Sequence record: OR995200.1
DNA length: 64,000 nucleotides
From: Escherichia phage JY01
Strand: one strand, 5' to 3'
Shown: positions 5,722-46,987 of the stretch, piece by piece
How the letters are laid out: each line of letters starts with the position of its first letter
Numbering within the stretch: position 1 is the stretch's first letter
Notes under the pieces: model-generated
What the model saw: only the letters and a program-made list of their open reading frames with translations
The model's database searches: none
What the model was told of the DNA's origin: nothing
Position numbers and translations under genes: made by a program

Positions 5722-6285
5722 TTACCATTCCAATGCTAGTTTTTTGAGTTGTTTCTGTTCTTTTACGTTCTTAGTCACTTCTTTCAAAAAATCATCCGTG
5801 ACTAAACCTTTTAGTTCTTTTAATACTAAAGGAAGTTTTCCATTTTTAGTAAGAATTGATTTATAGTTAATTGCATCATTTGTGTTAACTTGATACCGCT
5901 TAGCAAGTAACTTAATAATCAATACTTCGGTGGAATCTTCAACTAGTTTTGCCCATTTACCATATCTTTTACCACGAGGAACTGCAGCCATTAGATAATT
6001 AAAATGAGCTTCATCGCTTAAGCCTGATCCAATTAAATTCATAGCATATACAGCTGGCATGCACTCTGGAAATTGTGATAATGCATTTTCAACCATGAAT
6101 TTTGAATAATCTTTTTGAGCAATAGAGCATTTAGTTTTATTATTAATAGCTCCAATTATTTCAAAAAATTCATTTTCAGCTTTTTCTTTAAAAGAATCAG
6201 CAGCGGATTGGACAGCTGTCCAATCTTTTGAATACCAAGCAACTTGATGCTCGTTTAATTGAATATCATCTTCAAATAAGCTCAT
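5722..6285 (-). CDS. 62: Clamp loader small subunit
   Basis: 187 aa from internal ATG; position between regA and 44. Confidence 0.8.
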
Positions 6286-6286
6286 A

Positions 6287-7246
6287 TCACTTCCACTGCA
6301 TTTCACATGCTAACTGAATGAAAAGATAAACTAGATGCAATTCAGTATTAGCTGCAATACCATGATACTGATTATTTTCGCCGACAATTTCGTACATACG
6401 AATAATACTCTGTGGAGTTACACGTGAATAGATTTCTTCGGCAAGTTTACCCACGAACCACGAATAATCGGCTGCATATTTTGGTGCTAAAGCTCTGAGT
6501 TGTTTAACATCTTTATTTTTGAGAGACTCAAGAACATCATCAATAGCACCACGATCGTTAGTAACCAGTGATAAAATACCAGCATCCAAAACACCTTTAG
6601 ATGAATAACTATCGAGCTCGCCAATAGTTTTACGAAAATCAGGAAAATTCTTTTTAACCAAAGCTGCTACAACTTTCATATCAGCTATAGCAATTCCTTC
6701 ATGCTTACAGATTTCAGTCAATCGACGAATCATCTGCTTCATCATTTCAATTTTATCTTCATCGGTCGGTTGACCGAATGTGATAACTCGGCAGCGTGAC
6801 TGAAGCGGTTTAATAATACCATCAATATTGTTAGCAGTAATAATAATACTACAGTTCGAACTATAAGCTTCCATAAAGGAACGAAGATGTCGCTGAGACT
6901 CTGCTAATCCTGAACGGTCAAATTCATCAATAACGATTACTTTTTGACGACCGTCAAATGAAGCGGCGCTGGCAAAATTAGTCAAAGGACCGCGAACGAA
7001 ATCAATTTTACAATCTGATCCATTCACAAACATCATATCAGCATTTACATCATGACACAATGCTTTTGCTACAGTTGTTTTACCTGTTCCTGGAGAAGGA
7101 GAATGAAGAATAATATGTGGAATCTTACCTTTACTTGTAATAGATTTAAAGGTTTCTTTATCAAAGGCGGGAAGAATACATTCATCGATAGTAGATGGAC
7201 GATATTTCTGTTCAAGAATGTGTTCTTTTTCATTTACGGTAATCAT
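6287..7246 (-). CDS. 44: Clamp loader ATPase subunit
   Basis: Walker [11 protein letters not shown], Walker [12 protein letters not shown] motif; 319 aa from MITVNEK. Confidence 0.9.
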
Positions 7247-33884: not shown

Positions 33885-34466
33885 CTAACCGAGCTTTTTA
33901 GTTAATTCGTTCCAGTGTTTTCTACACAAAGAAACATAAATTTCATCACCAATACAGATTTGATTACCTTCTTTAACTGGTGTTCCATCTTCCATTAATC
34001 GAGCTGTCATAATCGCTTTTTTGCCGCAATGACAAACTGCCTTTAGTTCAATAAGTTTATCTGCAATCGCCAAAAGTTCTTTAGAACCTTCAAACAATTT
34101 TCCAGCGAAATCAGTCCTTAATCCATAAGCCATAACAGGAACATTATATGTATCAACAATTCGGCTTAATTGGTGCACCTGTTCAGTTTTTAAAAACTGA
34201 GCTTCATCTACAAATACGCAATGAATATCTTTTTGTGCTTCAGCCCATTTATAGAACTCGAAAATATCCATATCATCTGTAATAATATTCGCTTCCTGCT
34301 TAATTCCAATGCGAGAAACAACTTCACAGACAGAATCGCGAGTATCAATAGCAGGCTTAAGAACTAATACACCCATTCCACGTTCTTTATAATTATGTGC
34401 AGCAGTCAAAAGAGAAGCAGATTTTCCAGCATTCATTGCTGCATAAGTAAAAATTAAACTCGCCAT
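33885..34466 (-). CDS. tk: Thymidine kinase
   Basis: 193 aa; P-loop MNAGKSASLL and C-terminal zinc cysteines. Confidence 0.9.
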   Translation of the reverse strand: MASLIFTYAAMNAGKSASLLTAAHNYKERGMGVLVLKPAIDTRDSVCEVVSRIGIKQEANIITDDMDIFEFYKWAEAQKDIHCVFVDEAQFLKTEQVHQLSRIVDTYNVPVMAYGLRTDFAGKLFEGSKELLAIADKLIELKAVCHCGKKAIMTARLMEDGTPVKEGNQICIGDEIYVSLCRKHWNELTKKLG

Positions 34467-34475
34467 ATCACCTTC

Positions 34476-34661
34476 TTAAAGCGTATTCACATAAGCTATT
34501 AATTCATTTTCTTTCTTATCAAACCGATCAGCAAATTCTTCCTGCTGTTCGGGAGATAGCGGGCCGTATTCATCATAAAAGGTGTTTGCTTCTGTATGCT
34601 CATCTAGAAGTTCATGGATAAGCTCAAACAATTTATCTTTTTGTTCTTTGCTTAGGCTCAC
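34476..34661 (-). CDS. Hypothetical acidic small protein
   Basis: 61 aa ORF. Confidence 0.4.
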   Translation of the reverse strand: MSLSKEQKDKLFELIHELLDEHTEANTFYDEYGPLSPEQQEEFADRFDKKENELIAYVNTL

Positions 34662-34830
34662 AGTATGTCAATCCCCAAAAGTTTTAAAATGACTCGTTTC
34701 TGATTCATAACCGCTACGATTGAATGACCGTTGGGGTCTTTTTGACCTGATCCAATTATAAATCCTTTTTGCGCAGAAAGTTTAATCAAAACATCAAGTT
34801 CACGTAATAATTGATATTTTAAATCATCAT

Positions 34831-35058
34831 TCATTTTGGTTTACCTTCTTTAACGAAATCTGGATAAGGATAAAATCCCGAATAAAATCCTTCACCTTTA
34901 TGATTGATACATCCTTTATTAGAACAATAGCACCAATAATCGAAATCACAAGCCATTTCATCGTTGCATAAAGCAAAAACAACCGGCCACTTACACTTTT
35001 CACAGTGGGCATTTTTAAGAATACTAGTTTGGCTCATAACCATGTAACCTTTAAGCAA
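34831..35058 (-). CDS. Cysteine-rich small protein
   Basis: 75 aa with 8 Cys and one His in CxxC-like spacing. Confidence 0.4.
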   Translation of the reverse strand: MLKGYMVMSQTSILKNAHCEKCKWPVVFALCNDEMACDFDYWCYCSNKGCINHKGEGFYSGFYPYPDFVKEGKPK

Positions 35059-35246
35059 TATTCTTCTACATGTTGTTTACGACCTTTCTTATCAATAAAG
35101 GTATATTCAACGAATGCCCCAATGTAGTCTTTATCTACATCATGTGGACTATTAATTGGACATTTAGTACGGCAAATGCGTTCCCATTGACGAATAATTA
35201 CTGCTTTGTTTTTAGGATCAAACGGATGTGGGTAATGCACTTTCAT
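35034..35246 (-). CDS. Hypothetical protein
   Basis: 70 aa ORF. Confidence 0.4.
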   Translation of the reverse strand: MKVHYPHPFDPKNKAVIIRQWERICRTKCPINSPHDVDKDYIGAFVEYTFIDKKGRKQHVEEYCLKVTWL

Positions 35247-35697
35247 AATCCACCACTATTAAATCAATATCAGGAGTAAACATGTCGATTAATTTAGAAA
35301 CCTTATCCCAATCGCCGCCAGCAATACCACAACCTATGCGTGGAATGTAAATTACCGGTTTAAACAAAAGGGTTTCTGCCTGTAGATTTAATTCTATCAT
35401 GCAGTTTACTAAAGCACCATAATCAAGATTAGGACCTGGTTCGTATTGCGTATACAGGTTATAGCATATACCAAATCCCGTAGGACTATGTTTAAAAACA
35501 ATAGACATATCGCCTAATTTATCGCGAGAACCGTACTCAGTAGTGGTTTTATCTATTTCTAAAATTTTGGGATAGGCTCTGGCTAATTGACCCGCTACAC
35601 CTGAACCCATAGTATGAAAACAATTGCACCCGTGCGCAATAATATTACCTTCAAGAAAGAGGGCGACAATATCGCCCTTGATATATTTTACAATCAT
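35218..35697 (-). CDS. Macro-domain-like protein
   Basis: GDIVALF..IAHGCNCF..MGSGVAGQLARAYP resembles macro domain nucleotide-binding loops. Confidence 0.5.
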   Translation of the reverse strand: MIVKYIKGDIVALFLEGNIIAHGCNCFHTMGSGVAGQLARAYPKILEIDKTTTEYGSRDKLGDMSIVFKHSPTGFGICYNLYTQYEPGPNLDYGALVNCMIELNLQAETLLFKPVIYIPRIGCGIAGGDWDKVSKLIDMFTPDIDLIVVDYESALPTSV

Positions 35698-36035
35698 CTA
35701 GTACTCAATCCTCGATTATAAGAATCTACCAAACGGTCAACCATTGAATGACAAGCGGCTTTATCTTTCTCCTCCGCAACTGAACATTCTAAGGTATTCC
35801 ACTTTTTAGCATATCGTTTTAACAATGTATCATTTTTGTATCTGCTTGATTTATCTCTTTCTCCGTCTTTATATGCATATATTAATTTCTGCGCAAATTC
35901 AGCTTGGCATGCTTTATTTTTCCCGCAATAATCCGCTGCAGTACGGTTTACATACTCTCTAATTTCAGTATATGATGTATCTGCTAACGCAGAAAATGAA
36001 ATTAATCCTATACATAAAACCAAAATTTTAGTCAT
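35694..36035 (-). CDS. Secreted cysteine-containing protein
   Basis: Signal peptide MTKILVLCIGLISFSALA. Confidence 0.45.
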   Translation of the reverse strand: MTKILVLCIGLISFSALADTSYTEIREYVNRTAADYCGKNKACQAEFAQKLIYAYKDGERDKSSRYKNDTLLKRYAKKWNTLECSVAEEKDKAACHSMVDRLVDSYNRGLSTR

Positions 36036-36573
36036 TTACTATTTCCAAAAGTTTATTATTTTTAAGGTAATTAGCCTTTTCTAGGACTTCAGAAGCATAT
36101 TTAGAACCTGCTTTAACATTCCATCCCGAATTATAAGAGGATATTGCTTTTCTTATATCGCCCTTATGTATATTTAACCAATAAGAAAGTTCAATGTACG
36201 CCCAGGAAGCTGAATTGGACCGTTTATTCAACATTCTTTTTATTTCAGCATCGGTCATATTATAACCAAGTTCCTTAACTCTTGCTCGCATAGTAGGCAA
36301 ATAATTTTGGAACATTCCGTAGGCGTGATGCTTTGGTTTAGATTTTAAATTAACTCCGCCAGAGCTTTCTTGCCATAAAATGGCTGCCATTATATGACCT
36401 AATCCGCTCTTGTGGATATTTTTGTGTGTTTTATATTTTCCATCCTTAGAAAATTGTTCCCCGAATTGATACGCGTAACGCATGTTATCGAGTTGGACAT
36501 TACTGAAAGTATGCTCGGAGCTATGTGCCATCATTGAAATGGCCAATAGACCAGCGAGTAGTGCTTTTCTCAT
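36028..36573 (-). CDS. Lytic transglycosylase-like protein with signal peptide
   Basis: QESSGG..AYGMFQ catalytic-region motif; N-terminal signal peptide. Confidence 0.5.
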   Translation of the reverse strand: MRKALLAGLLAISMMAHSSEHTFSNVQLDNMRYAYQFGEQFSKDGKYKTHKNIHKSGLGHIMAAILWQESSGGVNLKSKPKHHAYGMFQNYLPTMRARVKELGYNMTDAEIKRMLNKRSNSASWAYIELSYWLNIHKGDIRKAISSYNSGWNVKAGSKYASEVLEKANYLKNNKLLEIVND

Positions 36574-36580
36574 GCTTACC

Positions 36581-37042
36581 TCATTGAGTTTTAATTACTG
36601 CTTTAGAAGCCTTTCCTGGTAAACGACGACTGTTGATAATTGCCATCCTGCATTGGAGTGACGGGTCTTTGAACTTCTCATTAGGTTTACAAACTGTAAA
36701 TCCAAGCCAAAGATTTCCATCTGTGATTTCTAAACGTCCAGGACGATATTCAACCCCATCAATAAAATCCTCGTCAATGTCAGGACGCGGAGGCATACTC
36801 AGGAATTCATTAACTTCTAAAACATGGTCTTTTATTTTGTGGAATAATTCAAAAACATATGTCTCATCAATCTCCCGTTGAATTGCACGATCAAGAAGAT
36901 GTTGAGAATATTTTAGATGAAACGATGAGACTCCTGCTGCTTTTGATGCCTCACGAATCTCATTGTTAATTTGACGAAACTCCGACTCAAAATGACGACG
37001 AAGCTTATTTCGACGGATAAAAACTTCTGTATTGATAGTCAT
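36581..37042 (-). CDS. regB: Endoribonuclease RegB
   Basis: 153 aa; sequence and position recalled as T4 RegB. Confidence 0.75.
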   Translation of the reverse strand: MTINTEVFIRRNKLRRHFESEFRQINNEIREASKAAGVSSFHLKYSQHLLDRAIQREIDETYVFELFHKIKDHVLEVNEFLSMPPRPDIDEDFIDGVEYRPGRLEITDGNLWLGFTVCKPNEKFKDPSLQCRMAIINSRRLPGKASKAVIKTQ

Positions 37043-37101
37043 GTTGTTCTCCTCTTAACTGATAGAAAAATTATACCACAGTCAAGAGGAAAAGTAAACA
37101 G

Positions 37102-37422
37102 TTATTCTTTAAATCTAATCAATTTATTCATAGACTTTGAAACTTCTGCACGAACCTCATGTAAGTTTTTAAGCTGTTCAAGACGCTGCTCATAGTAAGC
37201 AATTTCATCTTCTTCGAGACAGTCCTGTGAATCTTCTTTAAGATAACGTGCATAGTCCTGAAAAGCTTTACGGACTACTTCCTGGAAGTCATCAAGACTT
37301 TGAATTTTCTTAGGAGCGACAGATACACGACGAGGTGCAGTATAATACTCATAACCAAACCCTGCACTTAATTGAGCCATTAGTATTTTTCCTCTGGTTT
37401 GAACACTGCACGACAAGCCCAC
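37102..37422 (-). CDS. Hypothetical protein
   Basis: 106 aa ORF. Confidence 0.45.
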
Positions 37423-37646
37423 ATACTGGCTTCTTTGAGTTTCGTTTTAGCAATAGTTAACTGATCGAGGCTTTCAGCATAATTCTTCGCGAGTTCATAG
37501 TCTTCACAGCTATCAAATGCTTCCCAAAATTCATCGTATAAAGCATCAAAGATAAGTCCTAAACGAACTTCAGCGTCTTTGATAGCATTCACTTTACCGA
37601 TTTTCTCTTCAGTATGCGGCTTATAACCTTTAATGTCTTCAATCAT
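37380..37646 (-). CDS. Hypothetical protein
   Basis: Start set at internal ATG; overlaps neighbour. Confidence 0.4.
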
Positions 37647-45965: not shown

Positions 45966-46041
45966 TGGTCGAGGCAGTAGGGATCGAACCTACGACCTAG
46001 GACTTAGAAGGTCCTTGCTCTTCCTTCTGAGCTATGCCCCG
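45966..46041 (-). tRNA. tRNA-Arg (anticodon UCU)
   Basis: Manual cloverleaf: acceptor 7 bp, D-stem GCTC/GAGC, anticodon loop CUUCUAA, T-loop, CCA encoded. Confidence 0.8.
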
Positions 46042-46045
46042 TAAT

Positions 46046-46121
46046 TGGGGTGACCGATGGGAGTCGAACCCATGACTACGAGAATCACAATCTCGAGTTC
46101 TACCAACTGAACTACGGCCAC
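46046..46121 (-). tRNA. tRNA-His (anticodon GUG)
   Basis: Manual cloverleaf; anticodon loop UUGUGAU, discriminator C73, CCA encoded. Confidence 0.7.
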
Positions 46122-46235
46122 ATTAATACCTACTCCAACAATCAAGATGTCTTCACACGAAATTAAGAGAAGAGTGATCAGTTCAACCCCTATAATCGCG
46201 TCAAGTAGATATTAATGTGACAGTTGTCACAAATT

Positions 46236-46310
46236 TGGCGGACGTGATAGGATTCGAACCTATAACCAATCGCTTAACAGGCGATCGCTCTGCCATTGAG
46301 CTACACATCC
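46236..46310 (-). tRNA. tRNA-Asn (anticodon GUU)
   Basis: Manual cloverleaf; anticodon loop CUGUUAA, discriminator G73, CCA encoded. Confidence 0.7.
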
Positions 46311-46314
46311 AAAT

Positions 46315-46401
46315 TGGTGGGGAGTGATGGAGTCGAACCACCCGAGTCGCAATGACAATGAATTTACAGTCCACACCGCTACCTCTACGGGATAACTCCC
46401 C
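46315..46401 (-). tRNA. tRNA-Tyr (anticodon GUA), long variable arm
   Basis: 87 nt; anticodon loop CUGUAAA; acceptor GGGGAGU/ACUCCCC. Confidence 0.65.
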
Positions 46402-46414
46402 TTAATTCATAATT

Positions 46415-46489
46415 TGGTGGCCCTGGGTGGAATTGAACCACCATCTGGCGATTATGAGTCGCTTGCTTGAACCTTCCAGCTACAGGGCC
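46415..46489 (-). tRNA. tRNA with CAU anticodon (Ile-lysidine or Met)
   Basis: Manual cloverleaf; anticodon loop CUCAUAA; CCA encoded. Confidence 0.7.
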
Positions 46490-46490
46490 T

Positions 46491-46566
46491 TGGTGCTGAT
46501 TGACGGAATCGAACCGCCGACCTTCTCATTACAAGTGAGTTGCTCTACCTACTGAGCTAAATCAGC
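46491..46566 (-). tRNA. tRNA-Thr (anticodon UGU)
   Basis: Manual cloverleaf; anticodon loop CUUGUAA. Confidence 0.75.
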
Positions 46567-46571
46567 AAAAC

Positions 46572-46661
46572 TGGCGGAGGTGATAGGATTCGAACCTATG
46601 AATCGCCGGAGCGACTGCCGGTTTTCAAGACCGGTGCATTCAACCACTCTGCCACACCTCC
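46572..46661 (-). tRNA. tRNA-Ser (anticodon UGA), long variable arm
   Basis: 90 nt; anticodon stem CCGGU/ACCGG, loop CUUGAAA. Confidence 0.75.
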
Positions 46662-46663
46662 AG

Positions 46664-46737
46664 TCTCCATACAAGGATTTGAACCTTGGACCTCCTGATC
46701 CCAAATCAGGCGCTCTACCAAACTGAGCTACACGGAG
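46664..46737 (-). tRNA. tRNA-Pro (anticodon UGG), CCA not encoded
   Basis: Anticodon stem CCUGA/UCAGG, loop UUUGGGA; T-loop UUCAAAU. Confidence 0.75.
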
Positions 46738-46747
46738 TAAATTAAAT

Positions 46748-46821
<74 letters not shown>

Positions 46822-46826
46822 AAATT

Positions 46827-46913
46827 TGGTGCGAGAAGTGGGACTCGAACCCACAAGGAAATCATTCCGCAGCATTTTAAGTGCTGTGCCTTTACCAATT
46901 TGACCATTCTCGC
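46827..46913 (-). tRNA. tRNA-Leu (anticodon UAA), long variable arm
   Basis: 87 nt; anticodon stem CAGCA/UGCUG, loop CUUAAAA. Confidence 0.8.
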
Positions 46914-46914
46914 G

Positions 46915-46987
46915 CTGGGAATAAAGGACTCGAACCTTTGCATCCTGGAATCAAAATCCAGTGCCTTACCAACTTGGCTAATTCCCA
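46915..46987 (-). tRNA. tRNA-Gln (anticodon UUG), CCA not encoded
   Basis: Anticodon stem CUGGA/UCCAG, loop UUUUGAU; acceptor complement exact. Confidence 0.75.

Follow-up and report, generated by a model that had tools for sequence, protein, structure and literature searches.

A T4 tk.4 (adfM) orthologue in a T4-like phage encodes an ALC1-like macrodomain with glutamine at the catalytic lysine position

The open reading frame that lies between vs and tk.3 in the window (the whole stretch of 64,000 nucleotides of Escherichia phage JY01 analysed here, record OR995200.1) encodes a genuine macro domain of the ALC1-like class (TARG1/DarG/SCO6735/Poa1p), and is the orthologue of T4 tk.4 (adfM). 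We consider it likely that its product is an early ADP-ribosyl glycohydrolase, which would remove the ADP-ribose placed by DarT2 on thymidines of single-stranded phage DNA by means of an SCO6735-like Gln site. This analysis determined the fold, the class and the orthology of the protein as well as its active-site residues; the anti-DarTG2 phenotype was established by others, for the T4 allele only. The feature is thus already known, in that an A1pp/macro annotation is public and the anti-DarTG2 role has been genetically assigned in T4. Two points go beyond the literature found, namely an invariant Gln in place of the Lys, unlike PhiKZ AdfM, and a diverged allele of the gene in a T4-identical background.

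The macrodomain gene and its T4 counterpart

The gene has an ATG start and 159 codons, the stop being included in the interval given in Table 1, and its product is 159 aa long. The protein matches PHROG 335 with an E-value of 1e-71, a protein search returned 801 homologues at E ≤ 1e-3, and of the 50,697 phage records searched with tblastn, 2790 contained a homologue; the frame is therefore a real gene, far beyond a chance reading frame. The initial annotation had reported the frame as part of a tk-regB accessory block, and there it is: the gene is flanked by tk and regB, both confirmed by Pfam, and its direct neighbours are vs and tk.3 (DUF7202). The TGA stop of vs and the ATG of the macro gene share the sequence ATGA, which suggests that the two genes may be translationally coupled, and GAGGA was read directly from the sequence 12-16 nt 5' of this ATG. 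At the 3' end, 29 nt of the gene are shared with the start of tk.3. Overlaps at both ends are the tight arrangement usual for phage genes that are translated together as a run. In nucleotide searches the 480 nt of the gene matched Shigella phage Sf24 and Escherichia phage Kelasse with 99.6% identity and Yersinia phage phiD1 with 99.4%, and T4-like phages only were among the matches; the window is closely related to phage T4.

Table 1 Features of the macrodomain gene and its surroundings, with amino acid (aa) or nucleotide (nt) identity to T4 where given
Feature	Coordinates	Strand	Evidence or remark
rI.-1			100% aa identity
rI			99% aa identity
tk	33885..34466		99% aa identity
Replaced stretch, tk to tk.3	34460-35058	-	DNA identity 6-56%, flanks 95-100%
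58-aa ORF in place of tk.2	34658-34834	-	no Pfam match
68-aa Cys-rich ORF in place of tk.2	34831-35037	-	'Phage zinc binding domain' PF23895
tk.3			94% aa identity
Macro-domain CDS, tk.4 (adfM) orthologue	35218..35697	-	ORF, Pfam Macro, PHROG 335, T4 position; 57% aa identity
Diverged body, about residues 38-153	35239..35585	-	36-71% nt identity, surroundings 95-100%
Second diphosphate-binding loop, residues 119-128 (PRIGCGIAGG)	35314..35343	-	alignment to BT1257, SCO6735, TARG1
Central strand end, residues 80-84 (NLYTQ)	35446..35460	-	MAFFT and HMM alignments
T4-like 5' part, about residues 1-37	35586..35697	-	88-93% nt identity
First ADP-ribose/diphosphate-binding loop, residues 22-35 (HGCNCFHTMGSGVA)	35593..35634	-	invariant alignment columns
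Perfect 8-bp hairpin in macro CDS	35660-35678		both strands flagged by terminator scan
ATGA, vs stop/macro-gene start overlap	35694..35697	-	direct sequence reading
vs			97% aa identity
vs.1	36028-36573	-	100% aa identity
regB	36581..37042		100% aa identity
Sigma-70-like promoter upstream of regB, TTTACT-17-TATAAT with TG	37070..37098	-	weak consensus match
vs.3			98% aa identity
vs.4	37380-37646	-	94% aa identity
Eleven tRNA genes	45966-46987	-	

The sigma-70-like sequence upstream of regB might serve as an early promoter of regB, vs.1, vs and tk.4, which run in the same direction, and in a scan of the region promoter-like sites did not exceed the shuffled expectation. The co-directional, overlapping run together with this one promoter match suggests that the macro gene is expressed early. 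Within the coding sequence, just past the start and in the T4-conserved 5' part, codons 7-13 (KGDIVAL) contain a perfect G+C-rich hairpin, AGGGCGAT-ATT-GTCGCCCT, which may be due to chance or may have an effect on translation.

The gene order of the T4 reference is tk, tk.1, tk.2, tk.3, tk.4, vs, vs.1, regB, and the macro gene holds in the window the position of tk.4, between vs and tk.3. T4 Tk.4 (NP_049723), a protein of 155 aa, shares 57-59% identity with the 159-aa window protein (59% over 155 aligned residues), and its first 37 residues are nearly identical. Its record in T4 reads "phosphatase; Tk.4; contains A1pp phosphatase motif", the same gene is annotated "Macro domain protein" in phage slur04, and both RefSeq and PHROG 335 label the protein 'phosphatase'. 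A1pp is an older name of the macro domain. Since the T4 and slur04 annotations concern the same gene, its macro-domain nature was already on record. The initial annotation was right in its by-eye macro assignment and missed the correspondence to T4 tk.4, long annotated with the A1pp motif.

T4 lacking adfA and adfN is still resistant to DarTG2 (PMC11825919), and a further factor was therefore to be expected. In a recent preprint, transposon sequencing of T4 on a DarTG2-expressing host identified tk.4 as the sole significant DarTG2-specific gene, and a clean knockout rendered T4 sensitive to DarTG2; the gene was renamed adfM (anti-DarT factor Macrodomain) and AdfM was proposed, without an enzyme assay, to strip ADP-ribose from DNA (bioRxiv 10.1101/2025.11.20.689424). 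These genetics agree with the proposal of the initial annotation that the protein reverses an ADP-ribosylation defence, for which DarTG had been named. The literature searched contained no biochemistry of T4 Tk.4 or of the window allele, nor did we find that any member of the T4 Tk.4 family had been assayed as an enzyme; for T4 the evidence comes from genetics reported in a preprint, and the other work found on Tk.4 consisted of genome comparisons only. The DarT/NADAR literature that was checked held nothing on the T4 macrodomain.

Macrodomain fold and active site

The protein matched the Pfam Macro profile (PF01661) with 32 bits against a gathering cut-off of 22 (E=1.3e-7), over positions 2-117 of the 118 of the profile. 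Searched as a single sequence against the PDB, it matched BT1257 (3e-10), Poa1p (2e-9) and SCO6735 (1e-7), and more weakly M. tuberculosis DarG (3e-5) and TARG1 (0.01). A family profile was built from an alignment of 100 homologues from which the T4 sequence was left out, and it reached BT1257 at 2e-18, TARG1 at 4e-16, SCO6735 at 1e-14, Poa1p at 3e-14, M. tuberculosis DarG at 4e-11 and T. aquaticus DarG at 2e-9, with coronavirus nsp3 macrodomains far weaker (1e-3). The profile searches, on which the initial annotation had staked its macro-domain claim, thus returned the domain above threshold.

The same alignment was used as input for AlphaFold2, and the resulting model (pLDDT 94.6, pTM 0.89) has the three-layer alpha/beta/alpha macro fold. 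Structure prediction had also been proposed as a check, and its outcome agrees with the profiles: a Foldseek search of the PDB with the model placed TARG1, Poa1p, BT1257 and DarG on top, with a probability of 1.00 and TM values of approximately 0.7-0.8. At E ≤ 1e-3 the search gave 167 matches in the PDB; those listed were all macrodomains or proteins engineered from one. Because the profile E-values and the Foldseek ranking agree, the protein is assigned to the ALC1-like class and not to the MacroD-type or the viral nsP3-type macrodomains. Residues N25, M30-G31-S32-G33 and G122-C-G-I-A-G-G128 align with the corresponding loops in macrodomains of solved structure, and each is either invariant or conserved in at least 90% of the sequences; the peptide on which the by-eye assignment had been based, GDIVALFLEGNIIAHGCNCFHTMGSGVAGQLARAYP, corresponds to residues 8-43.

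Active-site residues were assigned from a MAFFT alignment with family members and, independently, from an HMM built from the Tk.4 family. The reference sequences, obtained from the PDB searches and from the PhiKZ paper, were BT1257, SCO6735, two DarG macrodomains, ALC1 and PhiKZ gp104. Invariant in the 100-sequence alignment, which extends down to 37% identity, are H22, G23, N25, C26, G33 and A35, all in the first loop, and D49, N80, Y82, Q84, P119 and W130. T4 Tk.4 also has H22, N25, N80, Y82, Q84, P119 and W130, and all invariant residues are common to the two alleles. H22 aligns with H23 of Poa1p and H32 of TARG1. N25 aligns with the conserved macro Asn, which is N23 of PhiKZ gp104, and an N23A mutant of gp104 had reduced activity (PMC13309987).

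Q84 (codon CAA, 35446-35448) lies at the end of the central strand. It stands in the column that is occupied in DarG by the catalytic Lys (K80, the first K of PTKK), in PhiKZ gp104 by the Lys of PTK and in TARG1 by K84, and both MAFFT and the HMM align it with the Gln of BT1257, ALC1 and SCO6735. The TARG1 sequence that we take to place K84 in this column matches the fragment in the PDB alignment. In SCO6735 the aligned Gln is residue 105 of a chain with a 20-residue tag, and is thus native Gln85. A different register, found with phmmer, put Q84 opposite an Asp of BT1257 six residues past the Gln; it was rejected, as MAFFT and the HMM place the gap after the Gln and match the N-x-x-x-Q pattern. 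A PDB search with a shortened query around Q84 aligned the C-terminal loop alone.

In the second loop, P119 is invariant, and conservation reaches at least 90% at G122, G124, A126, G127 and G128. This loop aligns residue by residue with PRIGCGLAGG of BT1257 and SCO6735 and with PRIGCGLDRL of TARG1, so that A126 stands where TARG1 has Asp125. The window protein has GCGIAGG in this loop, and T4 Tk.4 has GAGIGKG.

The closest likeness of the active site is to SCO6735 of S. coelicolor (PDB 5E3B) and BT1257 of Bacteroides (2AFC/2FG1), cellular proteins that share approximately 26% identity with the viral one described here. They also have Gln at the Lys position, with the strand end NMIGQ against NLYTQ in the window protein, and have in common with it an H-x-C-N motif and the PRIGCG(I/L)AGG-W loop. 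However, the loop that follows the Gln has 5-6 residues fewer in the window protein, so that the extended mobile loop is absent, and the pI values of the two cellular proteins are 9.7 (SCO6735) and 8.7 (BT1257) against 4.9. Gln85 of SCO6735 was described as the equivalent of DarG Lys80 and TARG1 Lys84, and the Q85A mutation abolished its activity; the enzyme strips DarT-made ADP-ribose from thymidine and not from guanine, rescues cells from DarT, and was proposed to act by positioning the distal ribose with the Gln for attack by water (PMC9411070). Its high activity on DNA was linked by the authors to the longer mobile loop and an electropositive surface (PMC9411070). For SCO6735, 'interaction-inhibition' has been reported as well.

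The DarG macrodomains (M. tuberculosis 5M3I, T. aquaticus 5M31/5M3E) have the same fold and class (Foldseek E 1e-8, TM 0.73-0.78), and their substrate, DarT2-modified thymidine, is presumed to be common to the window protein. In the latter, Gln replaces the catalytic Lys80, and His replaces the Asn that precedes the conserved Asn. Furthermore, DarG has a C-terminal DarT-binding domain, whereas the window protein consists of the 159-aa macro domain only and has no darT adjacent to its gene. The best NCBIfam and PADLOC match was DarG, through its macro part only, with 27.6 bits against a cut-off of 250 for NF048014 and positions 2-138 of 338 covered. A captured DarG antitoxin was rejected on these grounds, with the catalytic Lys, the C-terminal domain and a darT neighbour all missing and the score far below the NCBIfam cut-off.

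Human TARG1/OARD1 (4J5R/4J5S) and yeast Poa1p (6LFQ-6LFU) are the best fold matches, and both agree with the window protein in having a His ahead of the conserved Asn and in the MG(A/S)G loop. The Lys84/Asp125 dyad of TARG1 corresponds to Q84/A126, and Poa1p, a small-molecule phosphatase, carries extra insertions (approximately 170 aligned columns, rmsd >4 Å).

PhiKZ gp104, independently named AdfM (Cell Rep 2026, PMC13309987), is likewise a stand-alone acidic macrodomain of approximately 160 aa that counters DarTG2, as is proposed for the window protein. In vitro it takes DarT2-made ADP-ribose off an oligonucleotide, and it rescues cells from DarT2 (PMC13309987). Unlike the window protein, it has the PTK Lys and its PDB sequence matches are to DarG structures only (9e-25). 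The Tk.4-family profile scored gp104 at 31 bits, against 69 for BT1257 and 62 for TARG1. By these alignments, the T4-type AdfM family has an SCO6735-type active site and PhiKZ AdfM is a DarG-type enzyme; the two 'AdfM' proteins belong to different sub-lineages of the class, which were apparently recruited independently. PhiKZ gp104 is also imported into the phage nucleus, a structure that T4-like phages do not have.

Proposed function and alternatives

Removal of DarT2-made ADP-ribose is the likeliest function, since deletion of tk.4 sensitises T4 to DarTG2. The macro protein would probably be made early, along with RegB, Vs.1 and Vs. In a DarTG2 host the toxin DarT2 would put ADP-ribose on thymidines of single-stranded phage DNA and the macro protein would take it off, so that replication and transcription could go on. 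ADP-ribose would be held by N25, H22 and the two Gly-rich loops, Q84 would position the distal ribose in place of a catalytic Lys, and water would carry out the hydrolysis. The chemistry thus probably follows SCO6735 rather than DarG; it is feasible on thymidine because the Gln85 enzyme SCO6735 performs it, and Q84 was aligned to that Gln by two methods. We infer, as the most likely case, that the window allele acts like that of T4, with thymidine-ADP-ribose on DNA as the substrate and a Gln-based mechanism.

Several points stand against this function. The protein lacks the catalytic Lys and the DarT-binding domain of DarG, and it also lacks the longer mobile loop and, judged by its pI, the electropositive surface of SCO6735. 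Its net negative charge was considered as an objection to activity on DNA and was dropped, because PhiKZ gp104, with a pI of 5.05, is about as acidic as the window protein (pI 4.90) and works on DNA. The Tk.4 family is also not tied to DarT in general: a Gln-type, Tk.4-like homologue with 40% identity in Pelagimonas phthalicica (6001-6459 of its locus) is a solitary chromosomal gene, flanked on one side by a tryptophan halogenase gene and on the opposite side by a peptidase M23 gene with a 175-aa ORF that lacks annotation, and no recognisable darT was found at that locus.

Three alternatives were weighed against removal of ADP-ribose from DNA. The protein might be a small-molecule enzyme, either a Poa1p-like ADP-ribose-1''-phosphate phosphatase or an O-acetyl-ADP-ribose deacetylase, that clears NAD-derived metabolites during infection. 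The 'phosphatase' label of RefSeq and PHROG 335 and the 'A1pp phosphatase motif' of T4 would fit, as would the place of Poa1p among the best sequence and fold matches and the alignment of H22 and T29 with H23 and S30 of Poa1p, both of which are mutation targets in the deposited Poa1p structures. The label, however, stems from the old domain name and from no assay, and H22 is common to TARG1, BT1257 and SCO6735 as well, whose substrates are macromolecules that carry ADP-ribose. In many macrodomains a weak Appr-1''-p phosphatase activity is seen in vitro that is not their role. As the sole known phenotype of the orthologue concerns DarTG2 specifically, and this system modifies DNA, we regard a small-molecule enzyme as quite improbable.

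The protein might instead act on another ADP-ribosylated target, such as protein (through Asp/Glu linkages, as with TARG1 and SCO6735), RNA that is modified by further ADP-ribosyltransferases of defence systems, or the modifications made by the transferases of the phage itself, with the diverged allele differing in specificity from T4 Tk.4. Proteins are among the substrates of TARG1 and SCO6735, which are close relatives in structure (PMC9411070), and an RNA-ADP-ribosylating defence system has been mentioned (PMC11825919). The exchange of the body of the domain relative to T4, between flanks that are 94-100% identical, is what diversifying selection on specificity might give. Nevertheless, the invariant active-site residues are the same in both alleles, and tk.4 was depleted specifically with DarTG2 in the T4 screen. 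As to phage transferases, Alt, ModA and ModB of T4 modify arginine, and we know of no macrodomain that cleaves arginine-linked ADP-ribose. We therefore hold that such a target is improbable as well.

That the protein destroys or sequesters NAD-derived immune signals, for instance the cyclic ADP-ribose isomers of Thoeris, was the other suggestion of the initial annotation and is highly improbable: the general binding of ADP-ribose derivatives by macro domains and a signal-sponge gene (vs.4/Acb2) that belongs to the same gene run at a distance of 1.7 kb would be in its favour, but the literature retrieved held nothing that points to it and the closest characterised relatives hydrolyse ADP-ribose conjugates, not cyclic ADP-ribose signals.

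A diverged allele and its surroundings

Sliding identity along the DNA alignment of the window with T4 revealed that the macro gene is composed of two parts, a T4-like 5' part and a diverged body (Table 1), which indicates one allele junction inside the gene; identity to T4 returns to 95% inside tk.3. The window allele is present in approximately 320-330 phage records (330 with at least 80% gene coverage at the DNA level, 318 with at least 90% protein identity), and by tblastn an allele of approximately 58% identity occurs in T4 and many other phages. Because approximately 41-43% of the residues differ, mostly in the body of the domain, the specificity of the window allele could differ from that of T4. 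It is conceivable, though in our view unlikely, that the T4-type AdfM is a separately recruited, Gln-type DNA de-ADP-ribosylase and that the two alleles are specificity variants of an arms race. If so, they might differ in the DarT2 variants or the ADP-ribosylated nucleic acids that they neutralise, or in toxin binding and inhibition.

Other differences from T4 and other genes were observed in the same region. The stretch from tk to tk.3 is replaced relative to T4: tk.1, between tk and tk.3, has 28% identity to its T4 counterpart, and T4 tk.2 has given way to two unrelated small ORFs. The product of the vs.1 orthologue carries a transglycosylase SLT domain (Pfam, 25 bits against 21.3) and, in its N-terminal part, a hydrophobic stretch that resembles a signal sequence, while the T4 record says hypothetical protein. 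The vs.4 orthologue matches Pfam Acb2_Tad1_hairpin with 70.5 bits and is by this match the Acb2 cyclic-nucleotide sponge (anti-CBASS); the run to which the macro gene belongs thus contains another anti-defence gene. Further along the window, a cluster of tRNA genes comprises Arg, His, Asn, Tyr, Met(CAT), Thr, Ser, Pro, Gly, Leu and Gln. T4 has 8 tRNAs; the His, Asn and Tyr tRNAs would presumably be extra relative to T4, and we assume that the CAT tRNA may be a lysidine-modified Ile tRNA.

With the function proposed here, the macro gene joins a recently assigned class of anti-defence genes, the phage macrodomains that undo DNA ADP-ribosylation by DarT2; T4-like phages also carry AdfN (a NADAR enzyme, anti-DarT1) and AdfA (a DarT inhibitor). 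The practical value is modest. A DarG-style dead mutant, K80A, has no equivalent in this protein, and Q84A, N25A and H22A are the fitting mutations instead. The presence of at least two very different alleles at one locus of T4-like phages is a natural experiment on anti-DarT specificity.
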